Assembly: GCA_951406725.2 (NCBI GenBank)
Contig: OX597823.1
Span: forward strand, 7,998,001-8,062,000
Length of the DNA: 64,000 bases
Reading direction: 5' to 3'
Source: Octopus vulgaris
Taxonomy: Eukaryota
The notes under the pieces: generated by a model
The model's input: the letters and a program-made list of their open reading frames with translations, nothing else
The model's database searches: none
What the model was told of the DNA's origin: nothing
In this document: positions 9,049-44,398 of the stretch, piece after piece
Layout: each line of letters begins with the position of its first letter
Position numbering within the stretch: the stretch's first letter is position 1
Translations under genes and position numbers: made by a program

Positions 9049-9106
<58 letters not shown>

Positions 9107-9305: not shown

Positions 9306-9569
9306 TATATGTATATATATATATATAAACATTACTTTTTATAATTATGAGTATAAATTATAACTAGGGTTCAGCAAAAAAATTTGCTTTGCCACATACC
9401 AAACTTTTAGAAATAGCAGCCAAAGAACTTAGCTATTTCTTCTAGTATAAGAAGAATCTCCCAGACAACGTATACTCAAAAACAATTCACGTAGGCATAG
9501 AGGAAAAAAATAATGAAAATTCACTCGGCATTTGATTACTTGTGGACACGTTTCTGAGTTAGATAGATA

Positions 9570-9700
9570 TGGAGATGCAAGAATTACATTTGACCCTTCT
9601 TTCTTTTTGCTTTCAATCAAGGTTCTAAGGCTGTGTATGGAAAGGGTGCCATAGCTGAAAGAACCGCTTGTGATTGGTATGCCAAGTTCAAAAATGGAAA
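9570..9700 (+). pseudogene. Mariner transposase N-terminal remnant
   Basis: Reads FAFNQGSKA..VYGKGAIAERTACDWYAKFKNG. Confidence 0.65.
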
Positions 9701-10280
9701 TATATTTATACAGGGTTCAGTGTTGACTGGATGTTTGATTTCTATCACTCTCAGCACATGTCCTCAGATTGCACTGTGCACAGATTGACACCCAAACACT
9801 CTGAAATGTTTGTATTGGAGCTTCCAGTGTAAATGCCAAGCAGTACAGCATGTTGTTTGCAAATTTCTAGCAGAGTGAATTGCGTCATAGTGCTGTTTTT
9901 CTCACAGACAGTGAGTGCCCAACTGACCCTACTATACTGTGTAATTAACAAAGTCAAAAACAAACAATGAGTATGCGTGAAATTAAAAATATAAAATGGT
10001 GACAATTTACCCATTGCACCCTGTTTGTATATAATTTCATGCTGTGTCATCATCATGTTACTTTGTATCCCATGGTAATGTGGGTTGGCTGATTTAACAG
10101 GATCCAACAGGCTAGAAGTCTGTTGCGTTCCATTGTCAGTTGTGATAAGATTTCTACAGTTGGATGCCCTTCCTAACACCATCCACTTTACAGAATGTAT
10201 TGTGTGTCATCATTTTTTGCCACTGGCACTTATGAGGTTTTTTTTTTTCTTTTTTCTTTTTCCGACCAGACCATCAGATG

Positions 10281-12689: not shown

Positions 12690-12955
12690 GCGTGGCACCA
12701 GTATCTACCATTTTGCCTCCGTGAGACCCAACGCTAGAAATGTGCTTTTTACGTTCCACTGGCACAGGTGCAAGTTATGTGATACGAGTAGCGGCCACAA
12801 CTACGATTTCACTTGGCCAGCCGATTATATTGCCAACGTTCTCGGTCACCAGCCATTGGCTCTGTGAGACCCAAAATTCAAAGATCATGCCTCACCACTT
12901 CGTACCATGTCTTCCTGGGTTCCCTCCACACTTAGAGATCGGCACTTTTTATACA
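12690..12955 (-). mobile_element. RTE LINE 3' fragment directly abutting the satellite
   Basis: Minus strand KKCRSLSVEGT/PRKTWYEVVRHDL*ILGLTEPMAGDRERWQY, the typical RTE C-terminal RPRKTW..DL..DRxxW signature. Confidence 0.65.
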
Positions 12956-15900
12956 GCGGATCAAATAGGAGTACCGACAGAGATCAAAGAGGAATGCCGA
13001 CAGAGATCAAAGGGGAGTACCGACAGAGATCAAAGAGGAGTACCGATAGAGATCAAAGAGGAATGCCGACAGAGATCAAAGAGGAGTACCGATAGAGATC
13101 AAAGAGGAATGCCGACAGAGATCAAAGGGGAGTACCGACAGAGATCAAAGAGGAATGCCGACAAAGATCAAAGAGGAATGCCGACAGAGATCAAAGAGGA
13201 ATGCCGACAGAGATCAAAGAGGAATGCCGACAGAGATCAAAGGGGAGTACCGACAGAGATCAAAAAGGAATGCCGACAGAGATCAAAGGGGAGTACCGAC
13301 AGAGATCAAAGAGGAATGCCGACAGAGATCAAAGAGGAATGCCGACAGAGATCAAAGGGGAGTACAGACAGAGATCAAAGAGGAATGCCGACAGAGATCA
13401 AAGAGGAGTACCGACAGAGATCAAAGAGGAATGCCGACAGAGATCAAAGAGGAATGCCGACATAGATCAAAGATGAGTACCGACAGATATCAAAGACAAA
13501 TGCCGCCAAAGATCAAAGAGGAATGCCGACAGAGATCAAAGAGGAATGCCGACAGAGATCAAAGGGGAGTACCGATAGAGATCAAAGAGGAATGCCGACA
13601 GAGATCAAAGAGGAGTACCGACAAAGATAAAAGAGGAATGCCGACAGATATCAAAGGGGAGTACCGACAGATATCAAAGAAGAATGCCGAAAGAGATCAA
13701 AGAGGAATGCCGACATAGATCAAAGATGAGTACCGACAGATATCAAAGACAAATGCCGCCAAAGATCAAAGAGGAATGCCGACAGAGATCAAAGAGGAAT
13801 GCCCACAGAGATCAAAGGGGAGTACCGACAGAGATCAAAGAGAATGACGACAGAGATCAAAGAGGAGTACCGATAGAGATCAAAGAGGAATGCCGACAGA
13901 GATCAAAGGGGAGTACCGACAGAGATCAAAGAGGAATGCCGACAGAGATCAAAGAGGAATGCCGACAGAGATCAAATATGAGTACCGACAGATATCAAAG
14001 ACAAATGCCGTCAAAGATCAAAGAGGAATGCCGACAGAGATCAAAGAGGAATGCCGACATAGATCAAAGATGAGTACCGACAGATATCAAAGACAAATGC
14101 CGTCAAAGATCAAAGAGGAATGCCGACAAAGATCAAAGAGGAATGCCGACAGAGATCAAAGAGGAATGCCGACATAGATCAAAGATGAGTACCGAGAGAT
14201 ATCAAAGACAAATGCCGCCAAAGATCAAAAAGGAATGCCGACAGAGATCAAAGAGGAATGCCGACAGAGATCAAAGGGGAGTACCGACAGAGATCAAAGA
14301 GAATGCCGACAGAGTTCAAAGAGGAGTACCGATAGAGATCAAAGAGGAATGCCGACAGAGATCAAAGGGGAGCACCGACAGAGATCAAAGAGGAATGCCG
14401 ACAGAGATCAAAGAGGAATGCCGACATAGATCAAAGAGGAATGCCGACATAGATCAAAGATTAGTACCGACATATATCAAAGACAAATGCCGTCAAAGAT
14501 CAAAGAGGAATGCCGACAGAGATCAAAGAGGAATGCTGAGAGAGATCAAAAGGGAGTACCGACAGAGATCAAAGAGCAATGCCGACAGAGATCAAAGAGG
14601 AGTACCGAGAGAGATCAAAGAGGAATGCCGACAGAGATCAAAGGGGAGTACCGACAGATATCAAAGAGGAATGCCGACATAGATCAAAGAGGAATGCCGA
14701 CAGAGATCAAAGGGGAGTACCGACATAGATCAAAGAGAATGCCGACAGAGATCAAAGAGGAGTACCGATAGAGATCAAAGAGGAATGCCGACAGAGATCA
14801 AAGGGGAGTACCGACAGAGATCAAAGAGGAATGCCGACAGAGATCAAAGAGGAATGCCGACATAGATCAAAGATGAGTACCGACAGATATCAAAGACAAA
14901 TGCCGTCAAAGATCAAAGATGAATGCCGACAGAGATCAAAGATGAATGCCGACAGAGATCAAAGGGGATTACCGACAGAGATCAAAGAGGAATGCCGACA
15001 GAGATCAAAGAGGAATGCCGACAGAGATCAAAGGGGAGTACCGACAGAGATCAAAGAGGAATGCCGACGAGATCAAAGAGGAGTACCGACAGAGATCAAA
15101 GAGGAATGCCGACAGAGATCAAAGGGGAATACCGACAGATATCAAAGAGGAATGCCGACATAGATCAAAGATGAGTACCGACAGATATCAAAGACAAATG
15201 CCGCCAAAGATCAAAGAGGAATGCCGACAGAGATCAAAGAGGAATGCCGACATAGATCAAAGGGGAGTACACATAGAGATCAAAGAGGAATGCCGAGAGA
15301 GATCAAAGGGGTGTACCGACAGAGATCAAAGAGGAATGCCGACAGAGATCAAAGAGGAATGCCGACATAGATCAAAGATGAGTACCGACAGATATCAAAG
15401 ACAAGTGCCGTCAAAGATCAAAATAGAATGCCGACAGAGATCAAAGAGGAATGCCGACAAAGACCAAAGGGGAGTACCGACAGAGATCAAAGAGGAATGC
15501 CGACAGAGATCAAAGAGGAATGCCGACAGAGATCAAAGGGGAGTACCGACAGATATCAAAGAGGAATGCCGACAGAGATCAAAGAGGAATGCCGACATAG
15601 ATCAAAGATGAGTACCGACTGATATCAAAGACAAATGCCGCCAAAGATCAAAGAGGAATGCCGACAGATATCAAAGAGGAATGCCGATAGAGATCAAAGA
15701 GGAGTACCGACAGAGATCAAAGAGAATGCCGACAGAGATCAAAGAGGAGTACCGAGAGAGATCAAAGAGGAATGCCGACAGAGATCAAAGGGGAGTACCG
15801 ACAGAGATCAAAGAGGAATGCCGACATAGATCAAAGAGGATTGCCGACAGATATCAAAGATAAATGCCGTCAAATATCAAAGAGGAATGCCGACAGAGAT

Positions 15901-18900
15901 CAAAGAGGAATGCCGACATAGATCAAAGATGAGTACCGACAGATATCAAAGACAAATGCCGTCAAAGATCAAAGAGGAATGCCGACAAAGATCAAAGAGG
16001 AATGCCGACAGAGATCAAAGGGGAGTACCGACAGAGATCAAAGAGGAATGCCGACAGAGATCAAAGAGGAATGCCGACAGAGATCAAAGGGGAGTACCGA
16101 GAGAGATCAAAGAGGAATGCCGACAGAGATCAAAGAGGAGTACCGACAGAGATCAAAGAGGAATGCCGACAGATATCAAAGGGGAGTCCCGACAGATATC
16201 AAAGAGGAATGCCGACAGAGATATATGGGAGTACCGACAGAGATCAAAGAGGAATGCCGACAGAGATCAAAGAGGAATGCCGACATAGATCAAAGATGAC
16301 TACCGACAGATATCAAAGACAAATGCCGTCAAAGATCAAAGAGGAATGCCGACAGAGATCAAAGAGGAATGCCGACATAGATCAAAGATGAGTACCGACA
16401 GATATCAAAGACCAATGCCGCCAAAGATCAAAAAGGAATGCCGACAGAGATCAAAGAGGAATGCCGACAGAGATCAAAGGGCAGTACCGACAGAGATCAA
16501 AGAGAATGCCGACAGAGATCAAAGAGGAGTACCGATAGAGATCAAAGAGGAATGCCGACAGAGATATATGGGAGTACCGACAGAGATCAAAGAGGAATGC
16601 CGACAGAGATCAAAGAGGAATGCCGACATAGATCAAAGATGACTACCGACAGATATCAAAGACAAATGCCGTCAAAGATCAAAGAGGAATGCCGACAGAG
16701 ATCAAAGAGGAATGCCGACATAGATCAAAGATGAGTACCGACAGATATCAAAGACAAATCTCGTCAAAGATCAAAGAGGAATGCCGACAGAGATCAAAGA
16801 GGAATGCTGACAGAGATCAAAGGGGAGTACCGTCAGAGATCAAAGAGGAATGCCGACAGAGATCAAAGGGGAGTACCGACAGAGATCAAAGAGGAATGCC
16901 GACAGAGATCAAAGAGGAGTACCGACAGAGATCAAAGAGGAATGCCGACAGAGATCAAAGGGGAGTACCGACAGAGAACAAAGAGGAATGCCGACATAGA
17001 TCAAAGATGAGTACCGACATATAACAAAGACAAATGCCGCCAAAGATCAAAGAGGAATGCCGACAGAGATCAAAGAGGAATGCCGACAGAGATCAAAGGG
17101 GAGTACCGACAGAGATCAAAGAGAATGCCGACAAAGATCAAAGACGAGTACCGATAGAGATCAAAGAGGAAACCCGACAGAGATCAAAGGGGAGTACCGA
17201 CAGAGATCAAAGAGGAATGCCGACAGAGATCAAAGAAGAATGCCGACATAGATCAAAGATGAGTACCGACAGATATCAAAGACAAATGCCGTCAAAGATC
17301 AAAGAGGAATGCCGACAGAGATCAAAGAGGAATGCCGACAGAGATCAAAGGGGAGTACCGACAGAGATCAAAGAGGAATGCCGACAGAGATCAAAGAGGA
17401 ATGCCGACAGAGATCAAAGGGGAATGCCGACAGAGATCAAAGAGGAATGCCGACATAGATCAAAGATGAGTACTGACAAATATCAAAGACAAATGCCGCC
17501 AAAGATCAAAGAGGAATGCCGACAGATATCAAAGAGGAATGCCGACAGAGATCAAAGGGGAGTACCGACAGACATCAAAGACAATGCCGACATAGATCTA
17601 AGAGGAGTACCGATAGAGATCAATGAGGAATGCCGACAGAGATCAAAGGGGTGTACCGACAGAGATCAAAGAGGAATGCCGTCAAAGATCAAAGAGGAAT
17701 GCCGACAGAGATCTAGGAGGAATGCCGACAGAGAACAAAGGGGAGTACCGACAGAGATCAAAGAGAATGCCGACATAGATCAAAGATGAGTACCGACAGA
17801 TATCAAAGACAAATGCCGTCAAAGATCAAATAGGAATGCCGACAGAGATCAAAGAGGAATGCCGACAGAGATCAAAGTGGAGTACCGACAGAGATCAAAG
17901 GGGAGTACCGACAGAGATCAAAGAGGAATGCCGACAGAGATCAAAGAGGAGTACTGACAGAGATCAAAGAGGAATGCCGACAGATATCAAAGGGGAGTAC
18001 CGTCAGATATCAAAGAGGAATGCCGACAGAGATCAAAGAGGAATGCCGACATAGATCAAAGGGGAGTACCGACAGAGATCAAAGAGGAATGCCGACAGAG
18101 ATCAAAGTGGAATACCAACAGAGATCAAAGGGGAGTACCGACAGAGATGAAAGAGGAATGCCGAAAGAGATCAAAGGGGAGTACCGACAGATATCAAAGA
18201 GAATGCCGACAGAGATCAAAGAGGAATGCCGACATAGATCAAAGATGAGTACCGACTGATATCAAAGACAAATGCCGCCAAAGATCAAAGAGGAATGCCG
18301 ACAGATATCAAAGAGGAATGCCGACAGAGATCAAAGAGGAGTACCGACAGAGATCAAAGAGAATGCCGACAGAGATCAAAGAGGAGTACCGATAGAGAGC
18401 AAAGAGGAATGCCGACAGAGATCAAAGGGGAGTACCGACAGAGATCAAAGAGGAATGCCGACATAGATCAAAGATTAGTACCGACAGATATCAAAGACAA
18501 ATGCGTCAAAGATCAAAGAGGAATGCCGATATAGATCAAAGAGGAATGCCGACATAGATCAAAGATGAGTACCGACAGATATCAAAGACAAATGCCGTCA
18601 AAGATCAAAGAGAAATGCCGACAAAGATCAAAGAGGAATGCCGACAGAGATCAAAGAGGAGTACCGACAGAGATCAAAGAGGAAGGCCGACAGATATCAA
18701 AGGGGAGTCCCGACAGATATCAAAGAGGAATGCCGACAGAGATCAAAGATGAGTACCGACAGATATCAAAGACCAATGCCGCCAAAGATCAAAAAGGAAT
18801 GCCGACAGAGATCAAAGAAGAATGCCGACAGAGATCAAAGGGCAGTACCGACAGAGATCAAAGAGAATGCCGACAGAGATCAAAGAGGAGTAACGATAGA

Positions 18901-24900: not shown

Positions 24901-27900
24901 AGTACCGACAGAGATCAAAGAGGAATGCCGACAGAGATCAAAGAGGAATGCCGACATAGATCAAAGGGGAGTACCGATAGAGACCAAAGAGGAATGGCGA
25001 CAGAGATCAAAGAGGAATGCCGACATAGATCAAAGATGAGTACCGACAGATATCACGGACAAATGCCGTCAAAGATCAAAGAGCAATGTCGACAAAGATC
25101 AAGGAGGACTGCCGACAGAGAACAAAGGGGAGTACCGACAGAGATCAAAGAGGAATGCCGACATAGATCAAAGAGGATTGCCGACAGATATCAAAGATAA
25201 ATGCCGTCAAATATCAAAGAGGAATGCCGACAGAGATCAAAGAGGAATGCCGACAAAGACCAAAGGGGAGTACCGATAGAGATCAAAGAGGAATGCCGAC
25301 AGAGATCAAAGAGGAAATCCGACAGAGATCAAAGGGGAGTACCGACAGATATCAAAGAGGAATGCCGACAGAGATCAAAGAGGAGTACCGACAGAGATCA
25401 AAGAGGAATGCCGACAGAGATCAAAGGGGAATACCGACAGATATCAAAGAGGAATGCCGACAGATATCAAAGAGGAATGCCGATAGAGATCAAAGAGGAG
25501 TACCGACAGAGATCAAAGAGAATGCCGACAGAGATCAAAGAGGAGTATCGAGAGAGATCAAAGAGGAATGCCGACACAGGTCAAAGGGGAGTACCGACAG
25601 AGATCAAAGAGGAATGCCGACATTGATCAAAGATGAGTACCGACAGATATCAAAGACAAATGCCATCAAAGATCAAAGAGGAATGCCGACAGAGATCAAA
25701 GAGGAATGCCGACATAGATCAAAGATGAGTACCGACAGATATCAAAGACAAATGCCGTCCAAAGATCAAAGAGGAATGCCGACAAAGATCAAAGAGGAAT
25801 GCCGACAGAGATCAAAGGGGAGTACCGACAGAGATCAAAGAGGAATGCCGACAGAGATCAAAGAGGATTGCCGACAGATATCAATGGGGAGTACCGAGAG
25901 AGATCAAAGAGGAATGCCGACAGAGATCAAAGAGGATTACCGACAGAGATCAAAGAGGAATGCCGACAGATATCAAAGGGGATTCCCGACAGATATCAAA
26001 GAGGAATGCCGACAGAGATCAAAGAGGAATGCCGACATAGATCAAAGATGAGTACCGACAGATATCAAAGACCAATGCCGCCAAAGATCAAAAAGGAATG
26101 CCGACAGAGATCAAAGAGGAATGCCGACAGAGATCAAAGGGGAGTACCGACAGAGATCAAAGAGGAATTCCGACAGAGATCAAAGAGGAGTACCGATAGA
26201 GATCAAAGAGGAATGCCGACAGAGATATATGGGAGTACCGACAGAGATCAAAGAGGAATGCCGACAGAGATCAAAGAGGAGTACCGACAGAGATCAAAGA
26301 GGAATGCCGACAGAGATCAAAGGGGAGTACCGACAGATATCAAAGAGGAATGCCGACAGAGATCAAAGAGGAATGCCGACATAGATCAAAGATGAGTACC
26401 GACAAATATCAAAGACAAATGCCGTCAAAGATCAAAGAGGAATGCCGACAGAGATCAAAGAGGAATGCCGACAGAGATCAAAGGGGAGTACCGACAGAGA
26501 TCAAAGAGGAATGCCGTCAGAGATCAAAGAGGAATGCCGACAGAGATCAAAGGGGAGTACCGACAGAGATCAAAGAGGAATGCCGACAGAGATCAAAGAG
26601 GAGTACCGACAGAGATCAAAGAGAATGCCGACAGAGATCAAAGGGGAGTACCGACAGATATCAAAGAGGAATGCCGACATAGATCAAAGATGAGTACCGA
26701 CATATAACAAAGACAAATGCCGCCAAAGATCAAAGAGGAATGCCGACAGAGATCAAAGAGGAATGCCGACAGAGATCAAAGGGGAGTACCGTCAGAGATC
26801 AAAGAGGAATGCCGACAGAGATCAAAGAGGAATGCCGACATAGATCAAAGATGAGTACCGACAGATATCAAAGACAAATGCCGTCAAAGATCAAAGAGGA
26901 ATGCTGACAGAGATCAAAGAGGAATGCTGACAGAGATCAAAGGGGAGTACCGACAGAGATCAAAGAGGAATGCCGTCAGAGATCAAAGAGGAATGCCGAC
27001 AGAGATCAAAGGGGAGTACCGACAGAGATCAAAGAGGAATGCCGACAGAGATCAAAGAGGAGTACCGACAGAGATCAAAGAGGAATGCCGACAGAGATCA
27101 AAGGGGAGTACCGACAGATATCAAAGAGGAATGCCGACATAGATCAAAGATGAGTACCGACATATAACAAAGACAAATGCCGCCAAAGATCAAAGAGGAA
27201 TGCCGACAGAGATCAAAGAGGAATGCCGACAGAGATCAAAGGGGAGTACCGACAGAGATCAAAGAGAATGCCGACAAAGATCAAAGAGGAGTACCGACAG
27301 AGATCAAAGAGGAATGCCGACAGAGATCAAAGGGGAGTACCGACAGAGATCAAAGAGGAATGCCGACAGAGATCAAAGAAGAATGCCGACATAGATCAAA
27401 GATGAGTACCGACAGATATCAAAGACCAATGCCGCCAAAGATCAAAAAGGAATGCCGACAGAGATCAAAGAGGAATGCCGACAGAGATCAAAGGGCAGTA
27501 CCGACAGAGATCAAAGAGAATGCCGACAGAGATCAAAGAGGAGTACCGATAGAGATCAAAGAGGAATGCCGACAGAGATATATGGGAGTACCGACAGAGA
27601 TCAAAGAGGAATGCCGACATAGATCAAAGATTAGTACCGACAGATATCAAAGACAAATGCGTCAAAGATCAAAGAGGAATGCCGATATAGATCAAAGAGG
27701 AATGCCGACATAGATCAAAGATGAGTACCGACAGATATCAAAGACAAATACCGTCAAAGATCAAAGAGAAATGCCGACAAAGATCAAAGAGGAATGCCGA
27801 CAGAGATCAAAGAGGAGTACCGACAGAGATCAAAGAGGAAGGCCGACATATATCAAAGGGGAGTCCCGACAGATATCAAAGAGGAATGCCGACAGAGATC

Positions 27901-30900
27901 AAAGAGGAATGCCGACATAGATCAAAGATGAGTACCGACAGATATCAAAGACCAATGCCGCCAAAGATCAAAAAGGAATGCCGACAGAGATCAAAGAAGA
28001 ATGCCGACAGAGATCAAAGTGCAGTACCGACAGAGATCAAAGAGAATGCCGACAGAGATCAAAGAGGAGTACCGATAGAGATCAAAGAGGAATGCCGACA
28101 GGCATATATGGGAGTACCGACAGAGATCAAAGAGGAATGCCGACAGAGATCAAAGAGGAGTACCGACAGAGATCAAAGAGGAATGCCGCCAAAGATCAAA
28201 GGGGAGTGCCGACAGATATCAAAGAGGAATGCCAACATAGATCAAAGATGAGTACCGACAGATAACAAAGACAAATGCCGCCAAAGATCAAAGAGAAATG
28301 CCGACAGAGCTCAAAGAGGAATGCCGACAGAGTTCAAAGGGGAGTAACGACAGAGATCAAAGAGAATGCCAACAGAGATCAAAGAGGAGTACCGATAGAG
28401 ATCAAAGAGGAATGCCGACAGAGATCAAAGGGGAGTACCGACAGAGATCAAAGAGGAATGCCGACAGAGATCAAAGAGGAATGCCGACATAGATCAAAGA
28501 TGAGTACCGACAGATATCAAAGACAAATGCCATTAAAGATCAAAGAGGAATGCCGACAGAGATCAAAGAGGAATGCTGACAGAGATCAAAGGGGAGTACC
28601 GTCAGATATCAAAGAGGAATGCCGACAGAGATCAAAGAGGAATGCCGATATAGATCAAAGGGGAGTACCGACAGAGATCAAAGAGGAATGCCGACAATGA
28701 TCAAAGTGGAATGCCGACAGAGATCAAAGGGGAGTACCGACAGAGATTAAAGAGGAATGCCGACAGAGATCAAAGGGGAGTACCGACAGATATCAATAAG
28801 GAATGCCGACAGAGATCAAAGAGGAATGCCGACATAGATCAAAGATGAGTACCGACTGATATCAAAGACAAATGCCGCCAAAGATCAAAGAGGAATGCCG
28901 ACAGATATCAAAGAGGAATGCCGACAGAGATCAAAGAGGAGTACCGACAGAGATCAAAGAGAATGCCGACAGAGATCAAAGAGGAGTACTGATAGAGAAT
29001 AAAGAGGAATGCCGACAGAGATCAAGGGGAGTACCGACAGAGATCAAAGAGGAATGCCGACATAGATCAAAGATGAGTACCGACAGATATCAAAGACAAA
29101 TGCCGTCAAAGATCAAAGAGGAATGCCAATAGAGATCAAAGAGGAATGCCGACATAGATCAAAGATGAGTACCGACAGATATCAAATACAAATGCCGTCA
29201 AAGATCAAAGAGAAATGCCGACAAAGATCAAAGAGGAATGCCGACAGAGATCAAAGAGGAGTAACGACAGAGATCAAAGAGGAAGGCCGACAGATATCAA
29301 AGGGGAGTCCCGACAGATATCAGAGAGGAATGCCGACAGAGATCAAAGAGGAATGCCGACATAGATCAAAGATGAGTACCGACAGATATCAAAGACCAAT
29401 GCCGCCAAAGATCAAATAGGAATGCCGACAGAGATAAAGAGGAATGCCGACAGAGATCAAAGGGCAGTACCGACAGAGATCAAAGAGAATGCCGACAGAG
29501 ATCAAAGAGGAGTACCGATAGAGATCAAAGAGGAATGCCGACAGAGATATATGGGAGTACCGACAGAGATCAAAGAGGAATGCCGACAGAGATCAAAGAG
29601 GTGTACCGACAGAGATCAAAGAGGAATGCCGACAGAGATCAAAGGGGAGTACCGACAGATATCAAAGAGGAATGCCGACATAGATCAAAGATGAGTACCG
29701 ACAGATAACAAAGACAAATGCCGCCAAAGATCAAAGAGGAATGCCGACAGAGCTCAAAGAGAAATGCCGACAGAGTTCAAAGGGGAGTAACGACAGAGAT
29801 CAAAGAGGAGTACCGACAGAGATCAAAGAGGAATGCCGACAGAGATTAAAGGGGAGTACTTACAGAGATCAAAGAGGAATGCCGACAGAGATCAAAGAGG
29901 AATGCCGACATAGATCAAAGATGAGTACCGACAGATATCAAAGACAAATGCCGTTAAAGATCAAAGAGGAATGCCGACAGAGATCAAAGAGGAATGCCGA
30001 CAGAGATCAAAGGGGAGTACCGACAGAGATCAAAGAGAATGTCGACAGAGACCAAAGAGGAATACCGATAGAGATCAAAGAGGAATGCCGACAGAGATCA
30101 AAGGGTGTACCGACAGAGATCAAAGAGGAATGCCGACAGAGATCAAAGGGGGTACCGACAGATATCAAAGACAAATGCCGTCAAAGATCAAAGAGGAATG
30201 CCGACAGAGATCAAAGAGGAATGCCGACATAGATCAAAGTGTAGTACCGACAGAGATCAAAGAGGAATGCCGACAGAGATCAAAGAGGAATGCCGACAGA
30301 GTTCAAAGGGGAGTACCAACAGAGATCAAAGAGGATTGCCGACAGAGATAAAAGAGGAGTACCGACAGAGATCAAAGAGGAATGCCGACAGAGTTCAAAG
30401 GGGAGTACCAACAGAGATCAAAGAGGAATGCCGAAAGAGATTAAAGAGGAGAACCGACAGAGATCAAAGGGGAGTACCGACAGAGATCAAAAAGAAATGC
30501 CGACAGATATCAAAGAGGAGTACCGACAGATATCAAAGACAAATGCCGTCAAAGATCAAAGAGGAATGCCGACATAGATCAAAGAGGAATGCTGACAGAG
30601 ATCAAAGGGGAGTACCGACAGAGATCAAAGAGGAATGCCGACAGAGATCAAAGAGGAATGCCGATAGAGATCAAAGAGGATTACCGTCAGAGGTCAAAGA
30701 GGAATACCGACAGATATCAAAGACAAATGCCGTCAAAGATCAAAGAGGAATGCCGACAGAGATCAAAGAGGAATGCCGACAGAGATCAAAGGGGAGTATC
30801 GACAGAGATCAAAGAGAATGCCGACAGAGATCAAAGAGGAGTACCGACAGAGATCAAAGAGGAATGCCGACAGAGACCAAAGAGGAGTACCGACAGAGAT

Positions 30901-33900
30901 CAAAGAGGAATGCCGACAGAGATCAAAGGGGAGTACCGACAGAGATCAAAGAGGAGTACCGACAGATATCAAAGACAAATGCCATCAAAAATCAAAGAGG
31001 AATGCCAACAGAGATCAAAGAGGAGTACCGACAGAGATCAAAGGGGAATGCCGACAGAGATCAAAGAGGAGTACCGACAGAGATCGAAGAGGAATGTCGA
31101 CAAAGATCGAAGAGGAATGTCGACAAAGATCAAAGAGGAGTACCGACAGAGATCAAAGAGGAATGCCGACAGAGATAAAAGGGAGTACCGACAGAGATCA
31201 AAGAGGAGTACCGACAGATATCAAAGACAAATGCCGTCAAAGATCAAAGAGGAATGCCGACGTAGATCAAAGAGGAATGCCGACAGAGATCAAAGGGGAG
31301 TACCGACAGAGATCAAAGAGAATGTCGACAGAGATCAAAGAGGAGTACCGACAGAGATCAAAGAGGAATGCCGAAAGAGATTAAAGAGGAGAACCGACAG
31401 AGATCAAAGGGGAGTACCGACAGAGATCAAAAAGAAATGCCGACAGATATCAAAGAGGAGTACCGATAGAGATCAAAGAGGAATGCCGACAGAGATCAAA
31501 GGGGAGTACCGACAGAGATCAAAGAGGAATGCCGACAGAGATCAAAGAGGAATGCCGACATAGATCAAAGATGAGTACCGACAGATATCAAAGACAAATG
31601 CCGTCAATGATCAAAGAGGAATGCCGCCATAGATCATAGATGAATGCTGACAGAGATCAAAGGGGAGTACCGACAGAGATCAAAGAGGAATGCCGACAGA
31701 GATCAAAGAGGAATGCCGATAGAGATCAAAGAGGAGTACCGTCAGAGATCAAAGAGGAATACTGACAGATATCAAAGACAAATGCCGTCAAAGATCAAAG
31801 AGGAATGCCGACAGAGATCAAAGAGGAATGCCGACAGGGATCAAAGGGGAGTACCGACAGAGATCAAAGAGAATGCCGACAGAGATCAAAGAGGAGTACC
31901 GACAGAGATCAAAGAGGAATGCCGACAGAGACCAAAGAGGAGTACCGACAGAGATCAAAGAGGAATGCCGACAGAGATCAAAGGGGAGTACCGACAGAGA
32001 TCAAAGAGGATTGCCGAAAGATATCAAAGATAAATGCCGTCAAATATCAAAGAGGAATGCCGACAGAGATCAAAGGAGTACCGACAGAGATCAAAGAGGA
32101 ATGCCGACAGATATCAAAGAGGAGTACCGACAGAGATCGAAGAGGAATGTCGACAAAGATCAAAGAGGAGTACCGACAGAGATTAAAGAGGAATGCCGAC
32201 AGAGATAAAAGGGGAGTACCGACAGAGATCAAAGAGGAGTACCGACAGATATCAAAGACAAATGCCGTCAAAGATCAAAGAGGAATGCCGACGTAGATCA
32301 AAGAGGAATGCCGACAGAGATCAAAGGGAGTACCGACAGAGATCAAAGAGAATGCCGACAGAGATCAAAGAGGAGTACCGACAGAGATCAAAGAGGAATG
32401 CCGACAGAGATCAAAGAGGAGTACCGACAGAGATCAAAGAGGAATGCCGACAGAGATCAAAGAGGAGTACCGACAGAGATCGAAGAGGAATGCCAACAGA
32501 GATCAAAGAGGAGTACCGACAGAGATCAAAGAGAATGCCGACAGAGATCAAAGAGGAGTATCGAGAGAGATCAAAGAGGAATGCCGACACAGGTCAAAGG
32601 GGAGTACCGACAGAGATCAATGAGGAATTCCGACATTGATTAAAGATGAGTCCCGACAGATATCAAAGACAAATGCCATCAAAGATCAAAGAGGAATGCC
32701 GACAGAGATCAAAGAGGAATGCCGACATAGATCAAAGATGAGTACCGACAGATATCAAAGACAAATGCCGCCAAAGATCAAAGAGGAATGCCGACAAAGA
32801 TCAAAGAGGAATGCCGACAGAGATCAAAGGGGATTACCGACAGAGATCAAAGAGGAATGCCGACAGAGATCAAAGAGGATTGCCGACAGATATCAAAGGG
32901 GAGTACCGACAGAGATCAAAGAGGAATGCCGACAGAGATCAAAGAGGATTACCGACAGAGATCAAAGAGGAATGCCGACAGATATCAAAGAGGAATTCCG
33001 ACAGATATCAAAGAGGAATGACGACAGAGATCAAAGAGGAATGCCGACATAGATCAAAGATGAGTACCGACAGATATCAAAGACCAATGCCGCCAAAGAT
33101 CAAAAAGGAATGCCGACAGAGATCAAAGAGGAATGCCGACAGAGATCAAAGGGCAGTACCGACAGAGATCAAAGAGAATTCCGACAGAAATCAAAGAGGA
33201 GTACCGATAGAGATCAAAGAGGAATGCCGACAGAGATATATGGGAGTACCGACAGAGATCAAAGAGGAATGCCGACAGAGATCAAAGAGGAGTACCGACA
33301 GAGATCAAAGAGGAATGCCGACAGAGATCAAAGGGGAGTACCGACAGATATCAAAGAGGAATGCCGACAGAGATCCAAGAGGAATGCCGACATAGATCAA
33401 AGATGAGTACCGACAAATATCAAAGACAAATGCCGTCAAAGATCAAAGAGGAATGCCGACAGAGATCAAAGAGGAATGCTGATAGAGATCAAAGGGGAGT
33501 ACCGACAGAGATCAAAGAGGAATGCCGTCAGAGATCAAAGAGGAATGCCGACAGAGATCAAAGGGAGTACCGACAGAGATCAAAGAGGAATGCCGACAGA
33601 GATCAAAGAGGAGTACCGACAGAGATCAAAGAGGAATGCCGACAGAGATCAAAGGGGAGTACCGACAGATATCAAAGAGGAATGCCGACATAGATCAAAG
33701 ATGAGTACCGACATATAACAAAGACAAATGCCGCCAAAGATCAAAGAGGAATGCCGACAGAGATCAAAGAGGAATGCCGACAGAGATCATAAGGGAGTAC
33801 CGACAGAGATCAAAGTTGAATGCCGACAGAGATCAAAGATGAGTACCGACAGAGATCAAAGAGGAATGCCGACAGAGATCAAAGGAGTACCGACAGAGAT

Positions 33901-36900
33901 CAAAGAGGAATGCCGACAGAGATCAAAGAAGAATGCCGACATAGATCAAAGATGAGTACCGACAGATATCAAAGACCAATGCCGCCAAAGATCAAAAAGG
34001 AATGCCGATAGAGATCAAAGAGGAATGCCGACAGAGATCAAAGGGCAGTACCGACAGAGATCAAAGAGAATGCCGACAGAGATCAAAGAGGAGTACCGAT
34101 AGAGATCAAAGAGGAATGCCGACAGAGATATATGGGAGTACCGACAGAGATCAAAGAGGAATGCCGACATAGATCAAAGATTAGTACCGACAGATATCAA
34201 AGACAAATGCGTCAAAGATCAAAGAGGAATGCCGATATAGATCAAAGAGGAATGCCGACATAGATCAAAGATGAGTACCGACAGATATCAAAGACAAATA
34301 CCGTCAAAGATCAAAGAGAAATGCCGACAAAGATCAAAGAGGAATGCCGACAGAGATCAAAGAGGAGTACCGACAGAGATCAAAGAGGAAGGCCGACAGA
34401 TATCAAAGGGGAGTCCCGACAGATATCAAAGAGGAATGCCGACAGAGATCAAAGAGGAATGCCGACATAGATCAAAGATGAGTACCGACAGATATCAAAG
34501 ACCAATGCCGCCAAAGATCAAAAAGGAATGCCGACAGAGATCAAAGAAGAATGCCGACAGAGATCAAAGTGCAGTACCGACAGAGATCAAAGAGAATGCC
34601 GACAGAGATCAAAGAGGAGTACCGATAGAGATCAAAGAGGAATGCCGACAGGCATATATGGGAGTACCGACAGAGATCAAAGAGGAATGCCGACAGAGAT
34701 CAAAGAGGAGTACCGACAGAGATCAAAGAGGAATGCCGCCAAAGATCAAAGGGGAGTGCCGACAGATATCAAAGAGGAATGCCAACATAGATCAAAGATG
34801 AGTACCGACAGATAACAAAGACAAATGCCGCCAAAGATCAAAGAGAAATGCCGACAGAGCTCAAAGAGGAATGCCGACAGAGTTCAAAGGGGAGTAACGA
34901 CAGAGATCAAAGAGAATGCCAACAGAGATCAAAGAGGAGTACCGATAGAGATCAAAGAGGAATGCCGACAGAGATCAAAGGGGAGTACCGACAGAGATCA
35001 AAGAGGAATGCCGACAGAGATCAAAGAGGAATGCCGACATAGATCAAAGATGAGTACCGACAGATATCAAAGACAAATGCCATTAAAGATCAAAGAGGAA
35101 TGCCGACAGAGATCAAAGAGGAATGCTGACAGAGATCAAAGGGGAGTACCGTCAGATATCAAAGAGGAATGCCGACAGAGATCAAAGAGGAATGCCGATA
35201 TAGATCAAAGGGGAGTACCGACAGAGATCAAAGAGGAATGCCGACAATGATCAAAGTGGAATGCCGACAGAGATCAAAGGGGAGTACCGACAGAGATTAA
35301 AGAGGAATGCCGACAGAGATCAAAGGGGAGTACCGACAGATATCAATAAGGAATGCCGACAGAGATCAAAGAGGAATGCCGACATAGATCAAAGATGAGT
35401 ACCGACTGATATCAAAGACAAATGCCGCCAAAGATCAAAGAGGAATGCCGACAGATATCAAAGAGGAATGCCGACAGAGATCAAAGAGGAGTACCGACAG
35501 AGATCAAAGAGAATGCCGACAGAGATCAAAGAGGAGTACTGATAGAGAATAAAGAGGAATGCCGACAGAGATCAAGGGGGAGTACCGACAGAGATCAAAG
35601 AGGAATGCCGACATAGATCAAAGATGAGTACCGACAGATATCAAAGACAAATGCCGTCAAAGATCAAAGAGGAATGCCAATAGAGATCAAAGAGGAATGC
35701 CGACATAGATCAAAGATGAGTACCGACAGATATCAAATACAAATGCCGTCAAAGATCAAAGAGAAATGCCGACAAAGATCAAAGAGGAATGCCGACAGAG
35801 ATCAAAGAGGAGTAACGACAGAGATCAAAGAGGAAGGCCGACAGATATCAAAGGGGAGTCCCGACAGATATCAGAGAGGAATGCCGACAGAGATCAAAGA
35901 GGAATGCCGACATAGATCAAAGATGAGTACCGACAGATATCAAAGACCAATGCCGCCAAAGATCAAATAGGAATGCCGACAGAGATAAAGAGGAATGCCG
36001 ACAGAGATCAAAGGGCAGTACCGACAGAGATCAAAGAGAATGCCGACAGAGATCAAAGAGGAGTACCGATAAAGATCAAAGAGGAATGCCGACAGAGATA
36101 TATGGGAGTACCGACAGAGATCAAAGAGGAATGCCGACAGAGATCAAAGAGGAGTACCGACAGAGATCAAAGAGGAATGCCGACAGAGATCAAAGGGGAG
36201 TACCGACAGATATCAAAGAGGAATGCCGACATAGATCAAAGATGAGTACCGACAGATAACAAAGACAAATGCCGCCAAAGATCAAAGAGGAATGCCGACA
36301 GAGCTCAAAGAGAAATGCCGACAGAGTTCAAAGGGGAGTAACGACAGAGATCAAAGAGAATGCCAACAGAGATCAAAGAGGAGTACCGACAGAGATCAAA
36401 GAGGAATGCCGACAGAGATTAAAGGGGAGTACTTACAGAGATCAAAGAGGAATGCCGACAGAGATCAAAGAGGAATGCCGACATAGATCAAAGATGAGTA
36501 CCGACAGATATCAAAGACAAATGCCGTTAAAGATCAAAGAGGAATGCCGACAGAGATCAAAGAGGAATGCCGACAGAGATCAAAGGGGAGTACCGACAGA
36601 GATCAAAGAGAATGTCGACAGAGACCAAAGAGGAATACCGATAGAGATCAAAGAGGAATGCCGACAGAGATCAAAGGGGTGTACCGACAGAGATCAAAGA
36701 GGAATGCCGACAGAGATCAAAGGGGGTACCGACAGATATCAAAGACAAATGCCGTCAAAGATCAAAGAGGAATGCCGACAGAGATCAAAGAGGAATGCCG
36801 ACATAGATCAAAGTGTAGTACCGACAGAGATCAAAGAGGAATGCCGACAGAGATCAAAGAGGAATGCCGACAGAGTTCAAAGGGGAGTACCAACAGAGAT

Positions 36901-39900
36901 CAAAGAGGATTGCCGACAGAGATAAAAGAGGAGTACCGACAGAGATCAAAGAGGAATGCCGACAGAGTTCAAAGGGGAGTACCAACAGAGATCAAAGAGG
37001 AATGCCGAAAGAGATTAAAGAGGAGAACCGACAGAGATCAAAGGGGAGTACCGACAGAGATCAAAAAGAAATGCCGACAGATATCAAAGAGGAGTACCGA
37101 TAGAGATCAAAGAGGAATGCCGACAGAGATCAAAGGGGAGTACCGACAGAGATCAAAGAGGAATGCCGACAGAGATCAAAGAGGAATGCCGACATAGATC
37201 AAAGATGAGTACCGACAGATATCAAAGACAAATGCCGTCAAAGATCAAAGAGGAATGCCGACATAGATCAAAGAGGAATGCTGACAGAGATCAAAGGGGA
37301 GTACCGACAGAGATCAAAGAGGAATGCCGACAGAGATCAAAGAGGAATGCCGATAGAGATCAAAGAGGATTACCGTCAGAGATCAAAGAGGAATACCGAC
37401 AGATATCAAAGACAAATGCCGTCAAAGATCAAAGAGGAATGCCGACAGAGATCAAAGAGGAATGCCGACAGAGATCAAAGGGGAGTATCGACAGAGATCA
37501 AAGAGAATGCCGACAGAGATCAAAGAGGAGTACCGACAGAGATCAAAGAGGAATGCCGACAGAGACCAAAGAGGAGTACCGACAGAGATCAAAGAGGAAT
37601 GCCGACAGAGATCAAAGGGGAGCACCGACAGAGATCAAAGAGGAGTACCGACAGATATCAAAGACAAATGCCATCAAAAATCAAAGAGGAATGCCAACAG
37701 AGATCAAAGAGGAGTACCGACAGAGATCAAAGGGGAATGCCGACAGAGATCAAAGAGGAGTACCGACAGAGATCGAAGAGGAATGTCGACAAAGATCGAA
37801 GAGGAATGTCGACAAAGATCAAAGAGGAGTACCGACAGAGATCAAAGAGGAATGCCGACAGAGATAAAAGGGGAGTACCGACAGAGATCAAAGAGGAGTA
37901 CCGACAGATATCAAAGACAAATGCCGTCAAAGATCAAAGAGGAATGCCGACGTAGATCAAAGAGGAATGCCGACAGAGATCAAAGGGGAGTACCGACAGA
38001 GATCAAAGAGAATGTCGACAGAGATCAAAGAGGAGTACCGACAGAGATCAAAGAGGAATGCCGAAAGAGATTAAAGAGGAGAACCGACAGAGATCAAAGG
38101 GGAGTACCGACAGAGATCAAAAAGAAATGCCGACAGATATCAAAGAGGAGTACCGATAGAGATCAAAGAGGAATGCCGACAGAGATCAAAGGGAGTACCG
38201 ACAGAGATCAAAGAGGAATGCCGACAGAGATCAAAGAGGAATGCCGACATAGATCAAAGATGAGTACCGACAGATATCAAAGACAAATGCCGTCAATGAT
38301 CAAAGAGGAATGCCGACATAGATCAAAGAGGAATGCTGACAGAGATCAAAGGGGAGTACCGACAGAGATCAAAGAGGAATGCCGACAGAGATCAAAGAGG
38401 AATGCCGATAGAGATCAAAGAGGAGTACCGTCAGAGATCAAAGAGGAATACTGACAGATATCAAAGACAAATGCCGTCAAAGATCAAAGAGGAATGCCGA
38501 CAGAGATCAAAGAGGAATGCCGACAGAGATCAAAGGGGAGTCCCGAACAGAGATCAAAGAGGAATGCCGACAGAGATCAAAGAGGAATACCGACAGAGAT
38601 CAAAGAAGTACCGACAGAATCAAAGACCAATGCCGCAAAGATCAAATAGGATACCGACAGAGATAAAGAGGAATGCCGACAGAGATCAAAGGGATACCGA
38701 CAGAGATCAAAGAGAATGCCGACAGAGATCAAAGAGGAGTACCGACAGAGATCAAAGAGGAATGCCGACAGAGATAAGGGAGTACCGACAGAGATCAAGA
38801 GGAATGCCGACAGAGATCAAAGAGGAATACCGACAGAGATCAAAGAGGAATGCCGACAGAGATCAAAGGGAGTACCGACAGATATCAAAGAGGAATGCCG
38901 ACAAGATCAAAGAGGAGTACCGACAGATATCAAAGACAAATGCCGCCAAAGATCAAAGAGGAATGCCGACAGAGTCAAAGAGAAATGCCGACAGAGATCA
39001 AAGGGAATGCCGACAGAGATCAAAGAGGAGTACCGACAGAGATCAAAGGAATGCCGACAGAGATCAAAAGGGAGTACCGACAGAGATCAAAGAGGAATGC
39101 CGACAGAGATCAAAGAGGAATGCCGACATAGATCAAAGATGAGTACCGACAGATATCAAAGACAAATGCCGTTAAAGATCAAAGAGGAATGCCGACAGAG
39201 AGATCAAAGAGGAATGCCGACAGAGATCAAAGGGGAGTACCGACAGAGATCAAAGAGAATGCCGACAGAGATCAAAGAGGAGTACCGACAGAGATCAAAG
39301 AGGAATGCCGACAGAGATCAAAGAGGAGTACCGACAGAGATCAAAGAGGAATGCCGACAGAGATCAAAGAGGGGTACCGACAGAGATCAAAGAGGAAACA
39401 AAGATCAAAGAGGAATGCCGACAGAGATCAAAGAGGAATGCCGACAGAGATCAAAGAGGAGTACCGACAGAGATCAAAGAGGAATGCCGACAGAGATCAA
39501 AGAGGAATGCCGACAGAGATCAAAGGGAGTACCACAGAGATCAAAGAGGAATGCCGACAGAGATCAAAGGGAGTACCGACAGAGATCAAAGAGGAATGCC
39601 GACAGATTCAAAGGGAGTACCACAGAGATCAAAGAGGAATGCCGACAGAGATCAAAGAGGAGTACCGACAGAGATCAAAGGGAGTACCGACAGAGATCAA
39701 AAAGGAATGCCGACAGAGATCAAAGAGGAGTACCGACAGATATCAAAGACAAATGCCGTCAAAGATCAAAGAGGAATGCCGACAGAGATCAAAATACCGA
39801 CAGAGATCAAAGGGGAGTACCGACAGAGATCAAAGAGGAATGCCGACAGAGATCAAAGAGGAATGCCGATAGAGATCAAAGAGGAATTACCGACAGAGAT

Positions 39901-42130
39901 CAAAGAGGATTGCCGACAGATATCAAAGATAAATGCCGTCAAATATCAAAGAGGAATGCCGACAGAGATCAAAGAGGAATGCCGACAGAGATCAAAGAGG
40001 AGTACCGACAGAGATCAAAGAGAATGCCGACAGAGATCAAAGAGGAGTACCGACAGAGATCAAAGAGGAATGCCGACAGAGATCAAAGAGGAGTACCGAC
40101 AGAGATCAAAGAGGAATGCCGACAGAGATCAAAGGGGAGTACCGACAGAGATCAAAGAGGAGTACCGACAGATATCAAAGACAAATGCCATCAAAAATCA
40201 AAGAGGAATGCCGACAGAGATCAAAGAGGAGTACCGACAGAGATCAAAGAGGAATGCCGACAGAGATCAAAGAGGAGTACCGACAGAGATCGAAGAGGAA
40301 TGTCGACAAAGATCGAAGAGGAATGTCGACAAAGATCAAAGAGGAATGCCGACAGAGATCAAAGAGGAATGCCGACAGAGATCAAAGGGGAATACCGACA
40401 GAGATCAAAGAGGAGTACCGACAGATATCAAAGACAAATGCCGTCAAAGATCAAAGAGGAATGCCGACGTAGATCAAAGAGGAATGCCGACAGAGATCAA
40501 AGAGGAGTACCGACAGAGATCAAAGGAGAATGTCGACAGAGATCAAAGAGGAATACCGACAGAGATCAAAGAGGAATGCCGAAAGAGATCAAAGAGGAGT
40601 ACCGACAGAGATCAAAGGGGAGTGCCGACAGAGATCAAAGAGGAATGCCGACAGAGATCAAAGAGGAGTACCGATAGAGATCAAGAGGAATGCCGACAGA
40701 GATCAAAGGGAGTACCGACAGAGATCAAAGAGGAATGCCGACAGAGATCAAAGAGGAATGCCGACATAGATCAAAGATGAGTACCGACAGATATCAAAGA
40801 CAAATGCCGCAAAGATCAAAGAGGAATGCCGACAGAGATCAAAGAGGAATGCCGACAGAGATCAAAGAGGAATGCCGACAGAGATCAAAGAGGAGTACCG
40901 ACAGAGATCAAAGAGGAATGCCGAAAGAGAGGATCCGACAGAGATCAAAGAGGAATGCCGACAGAATCAAAGACAAATCCGCAAGGAGGTATGCCGACAG
41001 AGATCAAAGAGGAATGCCGACAGAGATCAAAGGGAATACCGACAGAGATCAAAGAGAATGCCGACAGAGATCAAAGAGGATGCCGACAGAGATCAAAGAG
41101 GAATGCCGACAGAGATCAAAGGGATACCGACAGGAGATCAAAGAGGAATGCCGACAGAGATCAAGGGGAGTACCGACAGAGATCAAAGAGGAGTACCGAA
41201 AGATATCAAAGACAAATGCCGTCAAAAATCAAAGAGGAATGCCGACAGAGATCAAAGAGGAGTACCGACAGAGATCAAAGAGGAATGCCGACAGATATCA
41301 AAGAGGAGTACCGACAGAGATCAAAGAGGAATGTCGACAGAGATCAAAGAGGAGTACCGACAGAGATTAAAGAGGAATGCCGACAGAGATCAAAGGGGAG
41401 TACCGACAGAGATCAAAGAGGAGTACCGACAGATATCAAAGACAAATGCCGTCAAAGATCAAAGAGGAATGCCGACGTAGATCAAAGAGGAATGCCGACA
41501 GAGATCAAAGGGGAGTACCGACAGAGATCAAAGAGAATGCCGACAGAGATCAAAGAGGAGTACCGACAGAGATCAAAGAGGAATGCCGACAGAGATCAAA
41601 GAGGAGTACCGACAGAGATCAAAGAGGAATGCCGACAGAGATCAAAGAGGAATGCCGACAGAGATCAAAGAGGAATGCCGACAGAGATCAAAGATGAGTA
41701 CCGACAGAGATCAAAGAGAATGCCGACAAAGATCAAAGAGGAATGCCGACAGAGATCAAAGAGGAATGCCGACAGAGATCAAAGTGCAGTACCTACAGAG
41801 ATCAAAGAGGAATGCCGACAGAGATCAAAGTGGATTGCCGACAGATATCAAAGATAAATGCCGACAGAGATCAAAGAGGAATGCCGACAGAGATCAAAGA
41901 GGAATGCCGACAGAGATCAAAGATGATTGCCGACAGATATCAAAGATAAATGCCGACAGAGATCAAAGAGGAATGCCGACAAAGATCAAAGAGGAATGCC
42001 GACAGAGATCGAGTACCGACAGAGATCAAAGAGGAATGCCGACAGAGATCAAAGAGGAATGCCGAGAGATCAAAGAGGAGTACTGGAGAGAGATCAAATA
42101 GAATGCCGACAGAGATCAAGTAGGAGTACC
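12955..42130 (+). repeat. ~29-kb tandem satellite, 23-bp monomer GATCAAAGAGGAATGCCGACAGA and variants (~1,270 copies)
   Basis: Continuous head-to-tail array, one orientation, 17/23 purines on +; recurrent variants GGGGAGTACCG, GAGGAGTACCG, GATGAGTACCG, TATCAAAGACAAATGCCG(C/T)CAAA and a 22-mer. Confidence 0.98.
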
Positions 42131-42357
42131 TATAGCAGAAGACACTTTTCTAAGATACCACGCAGTGGGACTGAACCCGGAATGATGTGGTTGGTCAGCA
42201 ATATACTTATCACACAGCCACTCCAAATTTATATGATAGGCTTGTTTCAGTTTCCAGCTATTAAATCGACCCACAAGGCATTAATTGTCCTGGGGCTATA
42301 ATAGAAGACACTTGGCCAATGAGCTGTTCAGTGGGACTGAACCTGAAACCAAGTGGT
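42131..42357 (-). mobile_element. Two decayed 5' fragments of SINE B at the right edge of the satellite
   Basis: tatagcagaagacact..cacgcagtgggactgaacccgg..cacacagccactcc is the reverse complement of the B head; a second, more diverged copy follows. Confidence 0.7.
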
Positions 42358-42747: not shown

Positions 42748-43145
42748 GTTAGTTAGTTAATTTTTTGGCTCAAAAAGCAAAAAGCGAGGCCATGTAGGGG
42801 GACATGGAGTTATGTACAGGGTGGTGTTCATGTAAAGAGTTCAGGCCACTTGAGGTCAAGGGAGGCTTTGAACAAAGCGGTCGTCGGCATCTTCACCATC
42901 TCGTCTGGCAGCTTGTTCCACGGATCTGCAACCCGGACGGATAAAGCCCCTCTCCTTCGATTGAGATGAAATCGTCGCAGATAGAGCTTTTCGGAATGAC
43001 CCCTCAGCCAACGCTCTGGAGCAGGAGTGAAGAACAGCTCCTTCGCGAGGTTACACTTTCCGTTTATGATGTTGTGAGCGAGAATGAGATCACCATGGCG
43101 GCAGCGTTTTTCAAGAGAATAAAGGTCGAGCGTCTTCAGCCTGTC
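42748..43145 (-). mobile_element. CR1-clade LINE 3' fragment with (TAAC)n tail
   Basis: Minus strand RLKTLDLYSLEKRCRHGDLILAHNIING..LRGHSEKL..SVRVADPWNKLP..FKASLDLKWPELFT*; gttagttagtta tail. Confidence 0.8.
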
Positions 43146-44280: not shown

Positions 44281-44398
44281 ATAAGTTTTCTTCTTTCACC
44301 ACAGCATATAAATATTTTTCCAGTTGTTTTTAGAGTTTGTTCATAACAAATATTCTTCATTTATATTTCCATCAACTGTTACAGTTGTTGTTATCTAC

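Follow-up and report, generated by a model that had tools for sequence, protein, structure and literature searches.

The stretch of Octopus vulgaris DNA considered here, 64,000 nucleotides long and referred to below as the window (C10:7998001-8062000 of the 2.80-Gb assembly, which comprises 227 contigs), contains a large tandem array of a 23-bp monomer at 12959-42119. Tandem Repeats Finder (TRF) counted 1,273 copies and wraparound alignment 1,275 monomers, all in the same (+) orientation. Each monomer carries a TCF-type core, ATCAAAG (positions 1-7), followed by a variable spacer (8-12) and by RCCG (14-17), and it is supported by the conservation tests given below that the TCF core behaves as if constrained. 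A preliminary description of the locus had read this unit as a bipartite site for TCF, with an HMG-box site and a C-clamp Helper site. The array and its site content proved real: exact ATCAAAG occurs 1,111 times, on a single strand, RCCG lies six bases downstream of it in 955 cases and six bases upstream in 994, and AGATCAAAGG is present 170 times.

The spacer variants named in that description are indeed the common ones, with AGGAAT the most frequent (563), followed by GGGAGT (173), AGGAGT (138), ACAAAT (91), ATGAGT (78) and a 5-nt form (50). The major variant creates the word GGAATGY, found in 560 copies in the array, which we take to be TEAD-like. The HMG site CTTTGWW, read here as WWCAAAG, is retained in 89% of the 1,275 monomers, and the short RCCG is present in 90%, as GCCG (721) or ACCG (430). 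The idea that ATCAAAG and RCCG stay unchanged across the variants did not hold, as both are intact in 81% of the monomers, and GTCG, present at 5% or more in 19 arrays of the family, reaches 26%. No strong short higher-order repeat was found in the window array (monomer identity at lags 1-40 was 0.04-0.10). Exact 250-mers and a repeated open reading frame pattern reveal a near-exact internal duplication of 6.55 kb (27460-31500, + strand, and about 34010-38200; offset 6,550-6,690), which is either a recent unequal exchange or an assembly duplication. Single-base deletions cluster at 40680-41170, possibly a lower-quality part of the assembly.

Both edges of the array cut other repeats. On the left lies a dispersed-repeat fragment (12829-12957), other copies of which continue past the cut point and which is presumably a long interspersed element (LINE) of RTE type. 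The right edge cuts a short interspersed element (SINE) fragment (42130-42230, - strand) with 166 matches in 69 loci, 68 starting at 42130. Since the two flanks are different elements, the window locus shows neither a target-site duplication nor a Helitron end. C2H2 zinc-finger (ZNF) sequences lie nearby: an intact exon with an open frame of 529 aa (15-1604, - strand) lies 11.3 kb from the array, and broken remnants split by repeat insertions (43140-44340, - strand) lie 1-2 kb from it. A usable splice junction for the 5' end of the intact exon was not found in four runs that are possibly RNA.

The geometry of the monomer may be compared with the TCF probes of PMC4154663. The AK6 probe consists of AAGATCAAAGG, six bases and GCCGCCA; by this layout the monomer is AK5 (23-mer) or AK4 (22-mer), with an additional KK0 pair across the monomer junction. 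The array thus shares with bipartite Wnt elements the HMG core and the AK5/AK4/KK0 pairing, and the monomer variant GCCGCCAAAGATCAAAGA agrees with the core of the KK0 probe in 17 of its 18 bases (PMC4154663). The bipartite spacing claimed earlier therefore agrees with the AK5 and KK0 configurations, and the occurrence of GCCGCCA three bases before ATCAAAG was also confirmed. Judged by the Table S1 probes, the monomer falls within the AK0-6 and AK2-9 ranges without being the optimal AK6 or FF0; these two were bound best in vitro, any nearby Helper helped, and in one fly enhancer all seven Helper bases mattered (PMC4154663).

The claim of a Helper site GCCGCCR fared less well. The extended Helper (GCCGCCR or RCCGCC) is rarely found beside the HMG site: there are 40 copies of GCCGCCR in the array, and the full fly form stands in the AK5 register in only 29 monomers. 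The usual 7-mers are GCCGACA (587) and ACCGACA (360), which together account for 947 of the 1,275 monomers. The first fits the worm Helper consensus GCCRAnW and the second does not, while both miss the fly GCCGCCR; the worm consensus comes from the most diverged C-clamp (PMC3916239, PMC4999783). As for the 4-mer RCCG, it has been considered too frequent to be meaningful, and methylation of the Helper blocks binding (PMC4267635). Another difference is that the natural elements have a few sites near a gene, whereas the array has about a thousand in a satellite (PMC4154663, PMC3916239, PMC4267635).

As had been expected, a TCF gene that includes a C-clamp exon is present in the genome. The gene, located by means of PF00505 and a C-clamp motif, lies at C6:42.74-42.77 Mb; its HMG exon is closest to LEF1 (2lef_A, E 8.7e-16), and the C-clamp exon is found 31 kb downstream on the same strand. 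A search of the genome gave 26 HMG-box matches. The profile of the TCF N-terminus (PF08347) found nothing and was also silent in the controls, and a second match to the C-clamp pattern (L046; such numbers designate stretches of the genome) was rejected as a low-complexity false match. In the TCF gene the second HMG exon is present in two alternative copies that differ in their basic tails (L047:3950-4100 and L048:2900-3060, - strand; C6:42.76-42.77 Mb). Mutually exclusive splicing of these copies could give two DNA-binding forms.

Lower substitution at the motifs than in the spacers had been predicted. For the window array, mismatches to the consensus occur in 2.6% of monomers at the ten fixed motif positions versus 12.6% elsewhere, the best result of 23 cyclic shifts. 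Departure from the consensus is 1.1-4.0% at positions 1-7 and 15-17 and 8-39% at positions 8, 9, 10, 12, 14, 18, 19, 21 and 23, but the spacer positions 11, 13, 20 and 22 are kept as well as the motifs (1.0-1.9%). In an alignment-free shift test of 33 arrays the TCF core ranked 1 of 23 and RCCG 10 of 23; in six new arrays the same test placed the TCF core at 1 of 22 and RCCG at 17 of 22. Across the family the prediction thus stood for ATCAAAG and failed for RCCG, and from these ranks the signal of constraint lies on the HMG site and not on the Helper.

The rates of rare alleles (below 3% in an array) were broadly alike at motif and non-motif positions, and somewhat lower in motifs for several classes (per 1,000, motif versus non-motif: G>A 8.0 and 9.4, C>A 7.3 and 8.2, C>T 8.6 and 7.9, A>G 4.4 and 5.9). 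Amplified alleles were counted in arrays of at least 50 monomers, with the expectation taken from the rare-allele spectrum and a break defined as loss of CTTTGWW or RCCG. Only 4 of 26 alleles at 10% or more break a motif versus 10.2-11.4 expected (p 0.0001-0.002), a comparison in which ambiguous indel placement in the purine run makes tolerated alleles look more numerous than they are; with substitutions only, the figures are 4 of 22 versus 8.5-9.5 (p 0.003-0.012), and among alleles at 20% or more, 1 of 12 versus 4.6-5.2. Among common flanking changes, 21 G>A (up to 86%) and 8 A>G (up to 35%) bring the sequence closer to the published optimum, and 23 G>T, also common, takes it further away (PMC4154663). 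The CpG transition medians (0.024 and 0.019) lie inside the range of the other C/G positions (0.010-0.059); as they are no higher than at neighbouring C/G, the pattern suggests little germline methylation of the arrays. In molluscs, low repeat methylation and scarce chromatin data are described (PMC10658182).

The window array belongs to a dispersed satellite family with at least 33 arrays, formed by short head-to-tail monomers at many loci and divided into subfamilies. A 16-base core pattern had 10,047 exact matches genome-wide, versus 25 for the reversed control. Two DNA searches, each with at least 150 matches and with 23 of 159 and 34 of 213 candidates scored, contributed to the set analysed, which consists of the window and 32 other arrays on C2, 4, 5, 7, 8, 9, 10, 14 and 17 (6,950 of 7,003 monomers kept). 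Array lengths range from 26 to 1,275 monomers, the window array being the longest of those analysed. Abrupt strand switches with long inverted arms were seen at L020:8056, L024:5515-6476, L026:5257-8124, L030:4031 and L041:6116, which suggests template switching during expansion.

Array-edge sequence is shared by 11 flank pairs among 109 flanks, and most flanks are unshared. For the window array, an origin from a transposon with terminal inverted repeats was rejected on these figures, common termini with an adjoining transposase not being found; long frames near the arrays, judged by eye, were mostly LINE pieces. Three TCF arrays of 3.1-4.4 kb (L038, L042 and L044, at C8:63.67, 116.76 and 54.18 Mb) lie within a common element that also contains a SINE, with a shared 5' flank of about 700 bases and with an end formed by a hairpin and CTAG where the similarity stops. 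We take this element to be Helitron-like, although its hairpin alone was no more stable than shuffles (z -0.26). A Helitron origin is loosely consistent with these three arrays only, and it was rejected for the window, where the flanks are cut LINE and SINE pieces. An action of the array on the neighbouring ZNF cluster, as formerly proposed, is not indicated, because the family is dispersed and ZNF sequence occurs in the fetched stretch of only 1 of the 32 other arrays, a test of low power since the window's own intact ZNF exon, 11.3 kb off, would lie beyond such a stretch.

The repeat is retained under four other organism labels, in line with the preliminary description. Part of the array was found in 20 of 24 listed runs, under five organism labels in all; none of these runs is on record as RNA, which says nothing on expression. 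Two monomers matched 851, 1,668, 390 and 36 contigs in the runs of labels B, C, D and E, respectively, and all five indels among the matches listed for these labels fall in the spacer, substitutions being unreadable. One run (X16) may be the source of the assembled DNA, a caveat on this cross-run comparison. Viral contigs scanned for the monomer gave 0 matches.

Several arrays of the family are joined to other short repeats with motif-like units. The array at C17:44.30 Mb ends in four rounds of TCF 22-mers, AAACCGGTTC 10-mers and GGAATGTCA 9-mers, the latter two presumably being Grainyhead and TEAD sites. Among 35 stretches found via the TCF monomer the 9-mer occurs in 5 and the 10-mer in 2, and among 20 stretches found via a query of the 10-mer and 9-mer (40 of 172 candidates scored) TCF blocks occur in 15. 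The three junction types of this module are identical in 10-12 of 75 stretches. The module, with fixed junctions and up to eight rounds, was seen at L029:6773-8890, L055:2823-7140 and in L056, L057, L058, L060 and L129. Loose ends, of which 21 out of 51 could be read, also place the 9-mer next to the TCF monomer under labels B, D and E.

Also found next to such blocks are 13- and 20-mers carrying MEF2-like sites, in arrays of tens of kb, a 21-mer with the octamer, a 59-mer with two inverted TEAD-like sites, and TGACGT-rich 25-mers. A 22-mer with an NRF1-like palindrome has 605 exact pattern matches on many contigs, versus 0 for its control. The MEF2, POU, STAT/kB and NRF1 labels of these neighbouring repeats are our assumption, and a literature search gave no paper anchoring the non-TCF labels. 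Large arrays of MEF2-like 13- and 18-20-mers alternate with the octamer-bearing 21-mer in L068:6245-9993 and L115-L124 (C13:65.5, C1:15.08, C15:30.17-30.22, and C18:0.01-0.08 and 20.24 Mb). The NRF1-like 22-mer at L119:1-5207 and L121:656-5200 has a conserved palindrome and is otherwise variable; it abuts MEF2-like arrays and interleaves with tandem SINE pieces. Repeats of 52 and 73 bp, dense in STAT-, ETS-, kB- and CSL-like sites, abut TCF arrays (L058:1-555, L125:5530-10000, L026:9018-9381, L027:7856-8305), and these motifs are not the best-kept part of their units. A 26-bp repeat with several CCAAT and TGATTGAT words flanks a TCF and TEAD block on both sides in inverted orientation (L133:941-3716 and 7601-10000). 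Three other abutting repeats match none of the 22 motifs in the panel used here: a 13-mer CAAATAGCCAACC (L027:1-4496, L056:7954-10000, L126), a 12-13-mer GAAAATTTTCAC with an embedded 32-mer (L014, L017, L018, L020, L040) and a 13-mer TTTGATGAAAATG (L072, L141). They are candidates for sites of other binders, or else for counter-examples.

Further repeats were observed in the window and elsewhere. Between the ZNF exon and the array, a small 43-bp duplication at 7179-7296 is rich in GTAAATA/TAAACA and ACAAAG words, presumably Fox- and Sox-like. An interstitial telomere-type CCCTAA repeat lies at 58120-58177, and two tandem repeats derived from SINEs, of 184 and 217 bp, occupy 54716-55640 and 2038-2471. 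At the start of C8 (L162:1-10000) an 84-bp zinc-finger coding unit forms a satellite of at least 119 copies with 99% identity.

The presence of a motif is weak evidence by itself, as a shuffled monomer matches the 22-motif panel 9.5% of the time. Transcription factor motif content is not general to the tandem repeats of this genome. In a first control, systematic samples totalling 400 kb gave 93 TRF rows, and none of the 16 units picked from them by hand matched the panel. A second control (40 stretches from contig starts and small contigs; 16 rows) gave 0 of 13 with a period of at most 100, where the 13 rows count as 11 after merging of duplicates and the three rows of 120-155 bases left out all match. 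By a hand tally, 6 of 16 cluster families match the panel versus 0 of 27 control units (Fisher p 0.0013). When the alignment-free conservation test was applied unchanged to new loci of seven non-TCF families, the joint p was 0.006, or 0.02 without NRF1. TEAD, MEF2 and NRF1 rank near the top in the conservation tests, and POU ranked 17 of 21 and then 1 of 21. The NRF1-like motif is GC- and CpG-rich and yet is the conserved part of its unit, so AT-biased mutation is no explanation for it. Overall, support for the motif patchwork is moderate; the analysis path was not fixed in advance.

Comparable repeats are known from other animals. MORC3-restricted repeats such as IFNB1-MRE likewise start from a one-motif unit that repeat expansion turns into a dense homotypic cluster, and different factors use different repeats there (SPI, AP-1, SP/KLF), like the cluster families of the octopus (PMC13373173). 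The window array is such a dense homotypic motif cluster in a tandem repeat. The MORC3-restricted repeats differ in having at most 61 motifs per element and unrelated sequences, and in that binding and enhancer activity were shown (PMC13373173), whereas the octopus repeats, known from sequence alone, have over 1,000 sites in an array, one family at dozens of loci, and joined patchworks. Heat-shock-element clusters carried by Helitrons in Caenorhabditis, treated also in PMC8896005, are similar as dense signal-responsive sites spread by a mobile element, which recalls the three octopus arrays in a Helitron-like element; they were proposed to have been selfish first and co-opted later, and HSF-1 binding and gene induction were shown for them (PMC6927752). 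By contrast, most octopus arrays, that of the window included, lack shared element ends, and their motifs are developmental (TCF, TEAD-like, MEF2-like).

Mouse major satellite is bound by Pax3/Pax9 and C/EBP-alpha, and Drosophila GAGA satellites are bound by sequence-specific factors; in bivalves, satellite-carrying Helentrons disperse short arrays by rolling-circle transposition. The factor-bound satellites resemble the octopus repeats in having factor sites inside the monomers, and differ in being single satellites with incidental sites, while the octopus units are largely one site each and assembled together. The literature search gave no account of this satellite or of such patchworks, although supplementary repeat libraries of genome papers may hold the monomer. 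Judged by its motifs, the array would work like a motif-cluster repeat, while on the Helper side it does not qualify as a bipartite Wnt element.

We tentatively favour binding-biased self-amplification as the leading explanation, in which binding of TCF to its core would give a copy a better chance of amplification than an unbound one has. A filter acting on amplification or survival would leave just this combination of even mutation and amplified variants that spare the motif. It is improbable, though by a lesser degree than for the other alternatives, that the likeness of the conserved box to a TCF site is a coincidence in a passively amplified ordinary satellite, with the neighbouring units matched post hoc. 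The 9.5% of shuffled monomers that match the panel, a share that would grow with a larger motif library, speak for such chance, as do the slippage-prone purine run that makes up the variable box, the equal conservation of A/T positions outside the motifs and the ordinary behaviour of RCCG. The avoidance of motif breaks persists, however, after correction for the mutation spectrum, the controls and the replication point the same way, and long exact matches (an NRF1-like 10-12-mer and a MEF2-like 10-mer) are the conserved parts of their units. A number of other results weigh against the favoured explanation. The cyclic-shift control has a floor of 1 in 23, and among alleles at 5% or more the avoidance is weak (14 of 43 break a motif versus 17-19 expected, p 0.03-0.19). 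Panel matches in neighbouring units show a weak excess (7 of 18 versus 3.8 expected from shuffles, p 0.057), and 10 of the 16 cluster families miss the panel, which was chosen after several units had been seen, NRF1 being added later. An initial motif-conservation test of eight other repeats gave a negative result (Fisher p 0.75). In that version masking was limited to fixed letters and the placement of indels interfered; the alignment-free test that replaced it gave p 0.07 on the same data. Grainyhead and STAT/kB motifs were not specially conserved in any version of the test, and the replication loci share ancestry with the earlier data. Both the 9-mer and the 10-mer have words in common with the TCF monomer, from which they may be descended, and the shared junctions indicate one origin of the module and not independent meetings.

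Sequence pattern does not separate selfish amplification from selection by the host, in which the arrays would serve as TCF-bound enhancers, repressed enhancers or TCF-Groucho platforms for nearby (ZNF) genes. The conservation signal would be the same, the AK5/KK0 geometry is favourable, an intact ZNF exon lies 11.3 kb away, the TCF-Grainyhead-TEAD module resembles a compound enhancer, and motif-cluster tandem repeats acting as repressed enhancers have a precedent, although only 2 such repeats were shown to act on genes (PMC13373173). Several points nevertheless make host selection unlikely: the arrays stand at many unrelated sites (the window's own between fragments of a LINE and a SINE), their lengths differ fifty-fold, no clear association with genes emerges, and a single point mutation among 1,275 copies would be hardly visible to selection. 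Slightly less probable again is a real constraint imposed by another reader of AGATCAAAG, such as a C2H2 zinc-finger protein, another HMG-box factor or nucleosome positioning. The conserved block spans AGATCAAAG together with scattered A/T positions, conservation does not extend to the Helper, and the genome has many ZNF genes besides its 26 HMG-box matches; yet the block falls exactly on the TCF site, and the pair of flanking changes seen most often (21 G>A and 8 A>G) heads toward the optimal TCF site. Least of all is it to be expected that the array acts as a titration sink, soaking up TCF or beta-catenin and damping Wnt genome-wide. HMG-plus-RCCG pairs may lie to a large extent within the family (at least 10,047 cores versus about 14,000 in the background, a very rough figure extrapolated from 2 in 400 kb), but the Helper is suboptimal and unconstrained, and for plain HMG sites this earlier suggestion is weak, since background ATCAAAG (96 in 400 kb, about 670,000 genome-wide) leaves the window with only about 0.2% and the family with about 1.5% or slightly more.

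Under binding-biased self-amplification, TCF, with modest help from the C-clamp, and probably TEAD would occupy the monomers, and this occupancy would keep the array open and unmethylated. Open arrays would undergo more unequal exchange and copying to new sites, where they would recombine with other factor-binding repeats. The array would thus mimic an enhancer for its own spread, while a Wnt-dependent influence on nearby genes, if any, would be a side effect, open to silencing or co-option by the host. A wider extension, possible but rather doubtful, is that these repeats form a superfamily of enhancer-mimic satellites, whose units, largely one strong site each (TCF, TEAD, Grainyhead, MEF2, POU, NRF1, STAT/kB), were amplified because they are bound and recombined into multi-factor patchworks, thereby scattering signal-responsive super-enhancers of hundreds to thousands of sites.

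What makes given sequences turn into satellites has long been asked. If the matches are due to chance, the locus is an ordinary dispersed satellite; if factor binding biases amplification, satellite sequence would be shaped by the transcription factors of the cell, and cephalopods would gain a fast source of signal-responsive regulatory DNA together with natural multi-site Wnt/Hippo reporters. This genome offers a direct test, with at least seven repeat families, each of which predicts its own binder. Should the superfamily be real, the window array would be a natural thousand-site reporter of Wnt (and Hippo) signalling.

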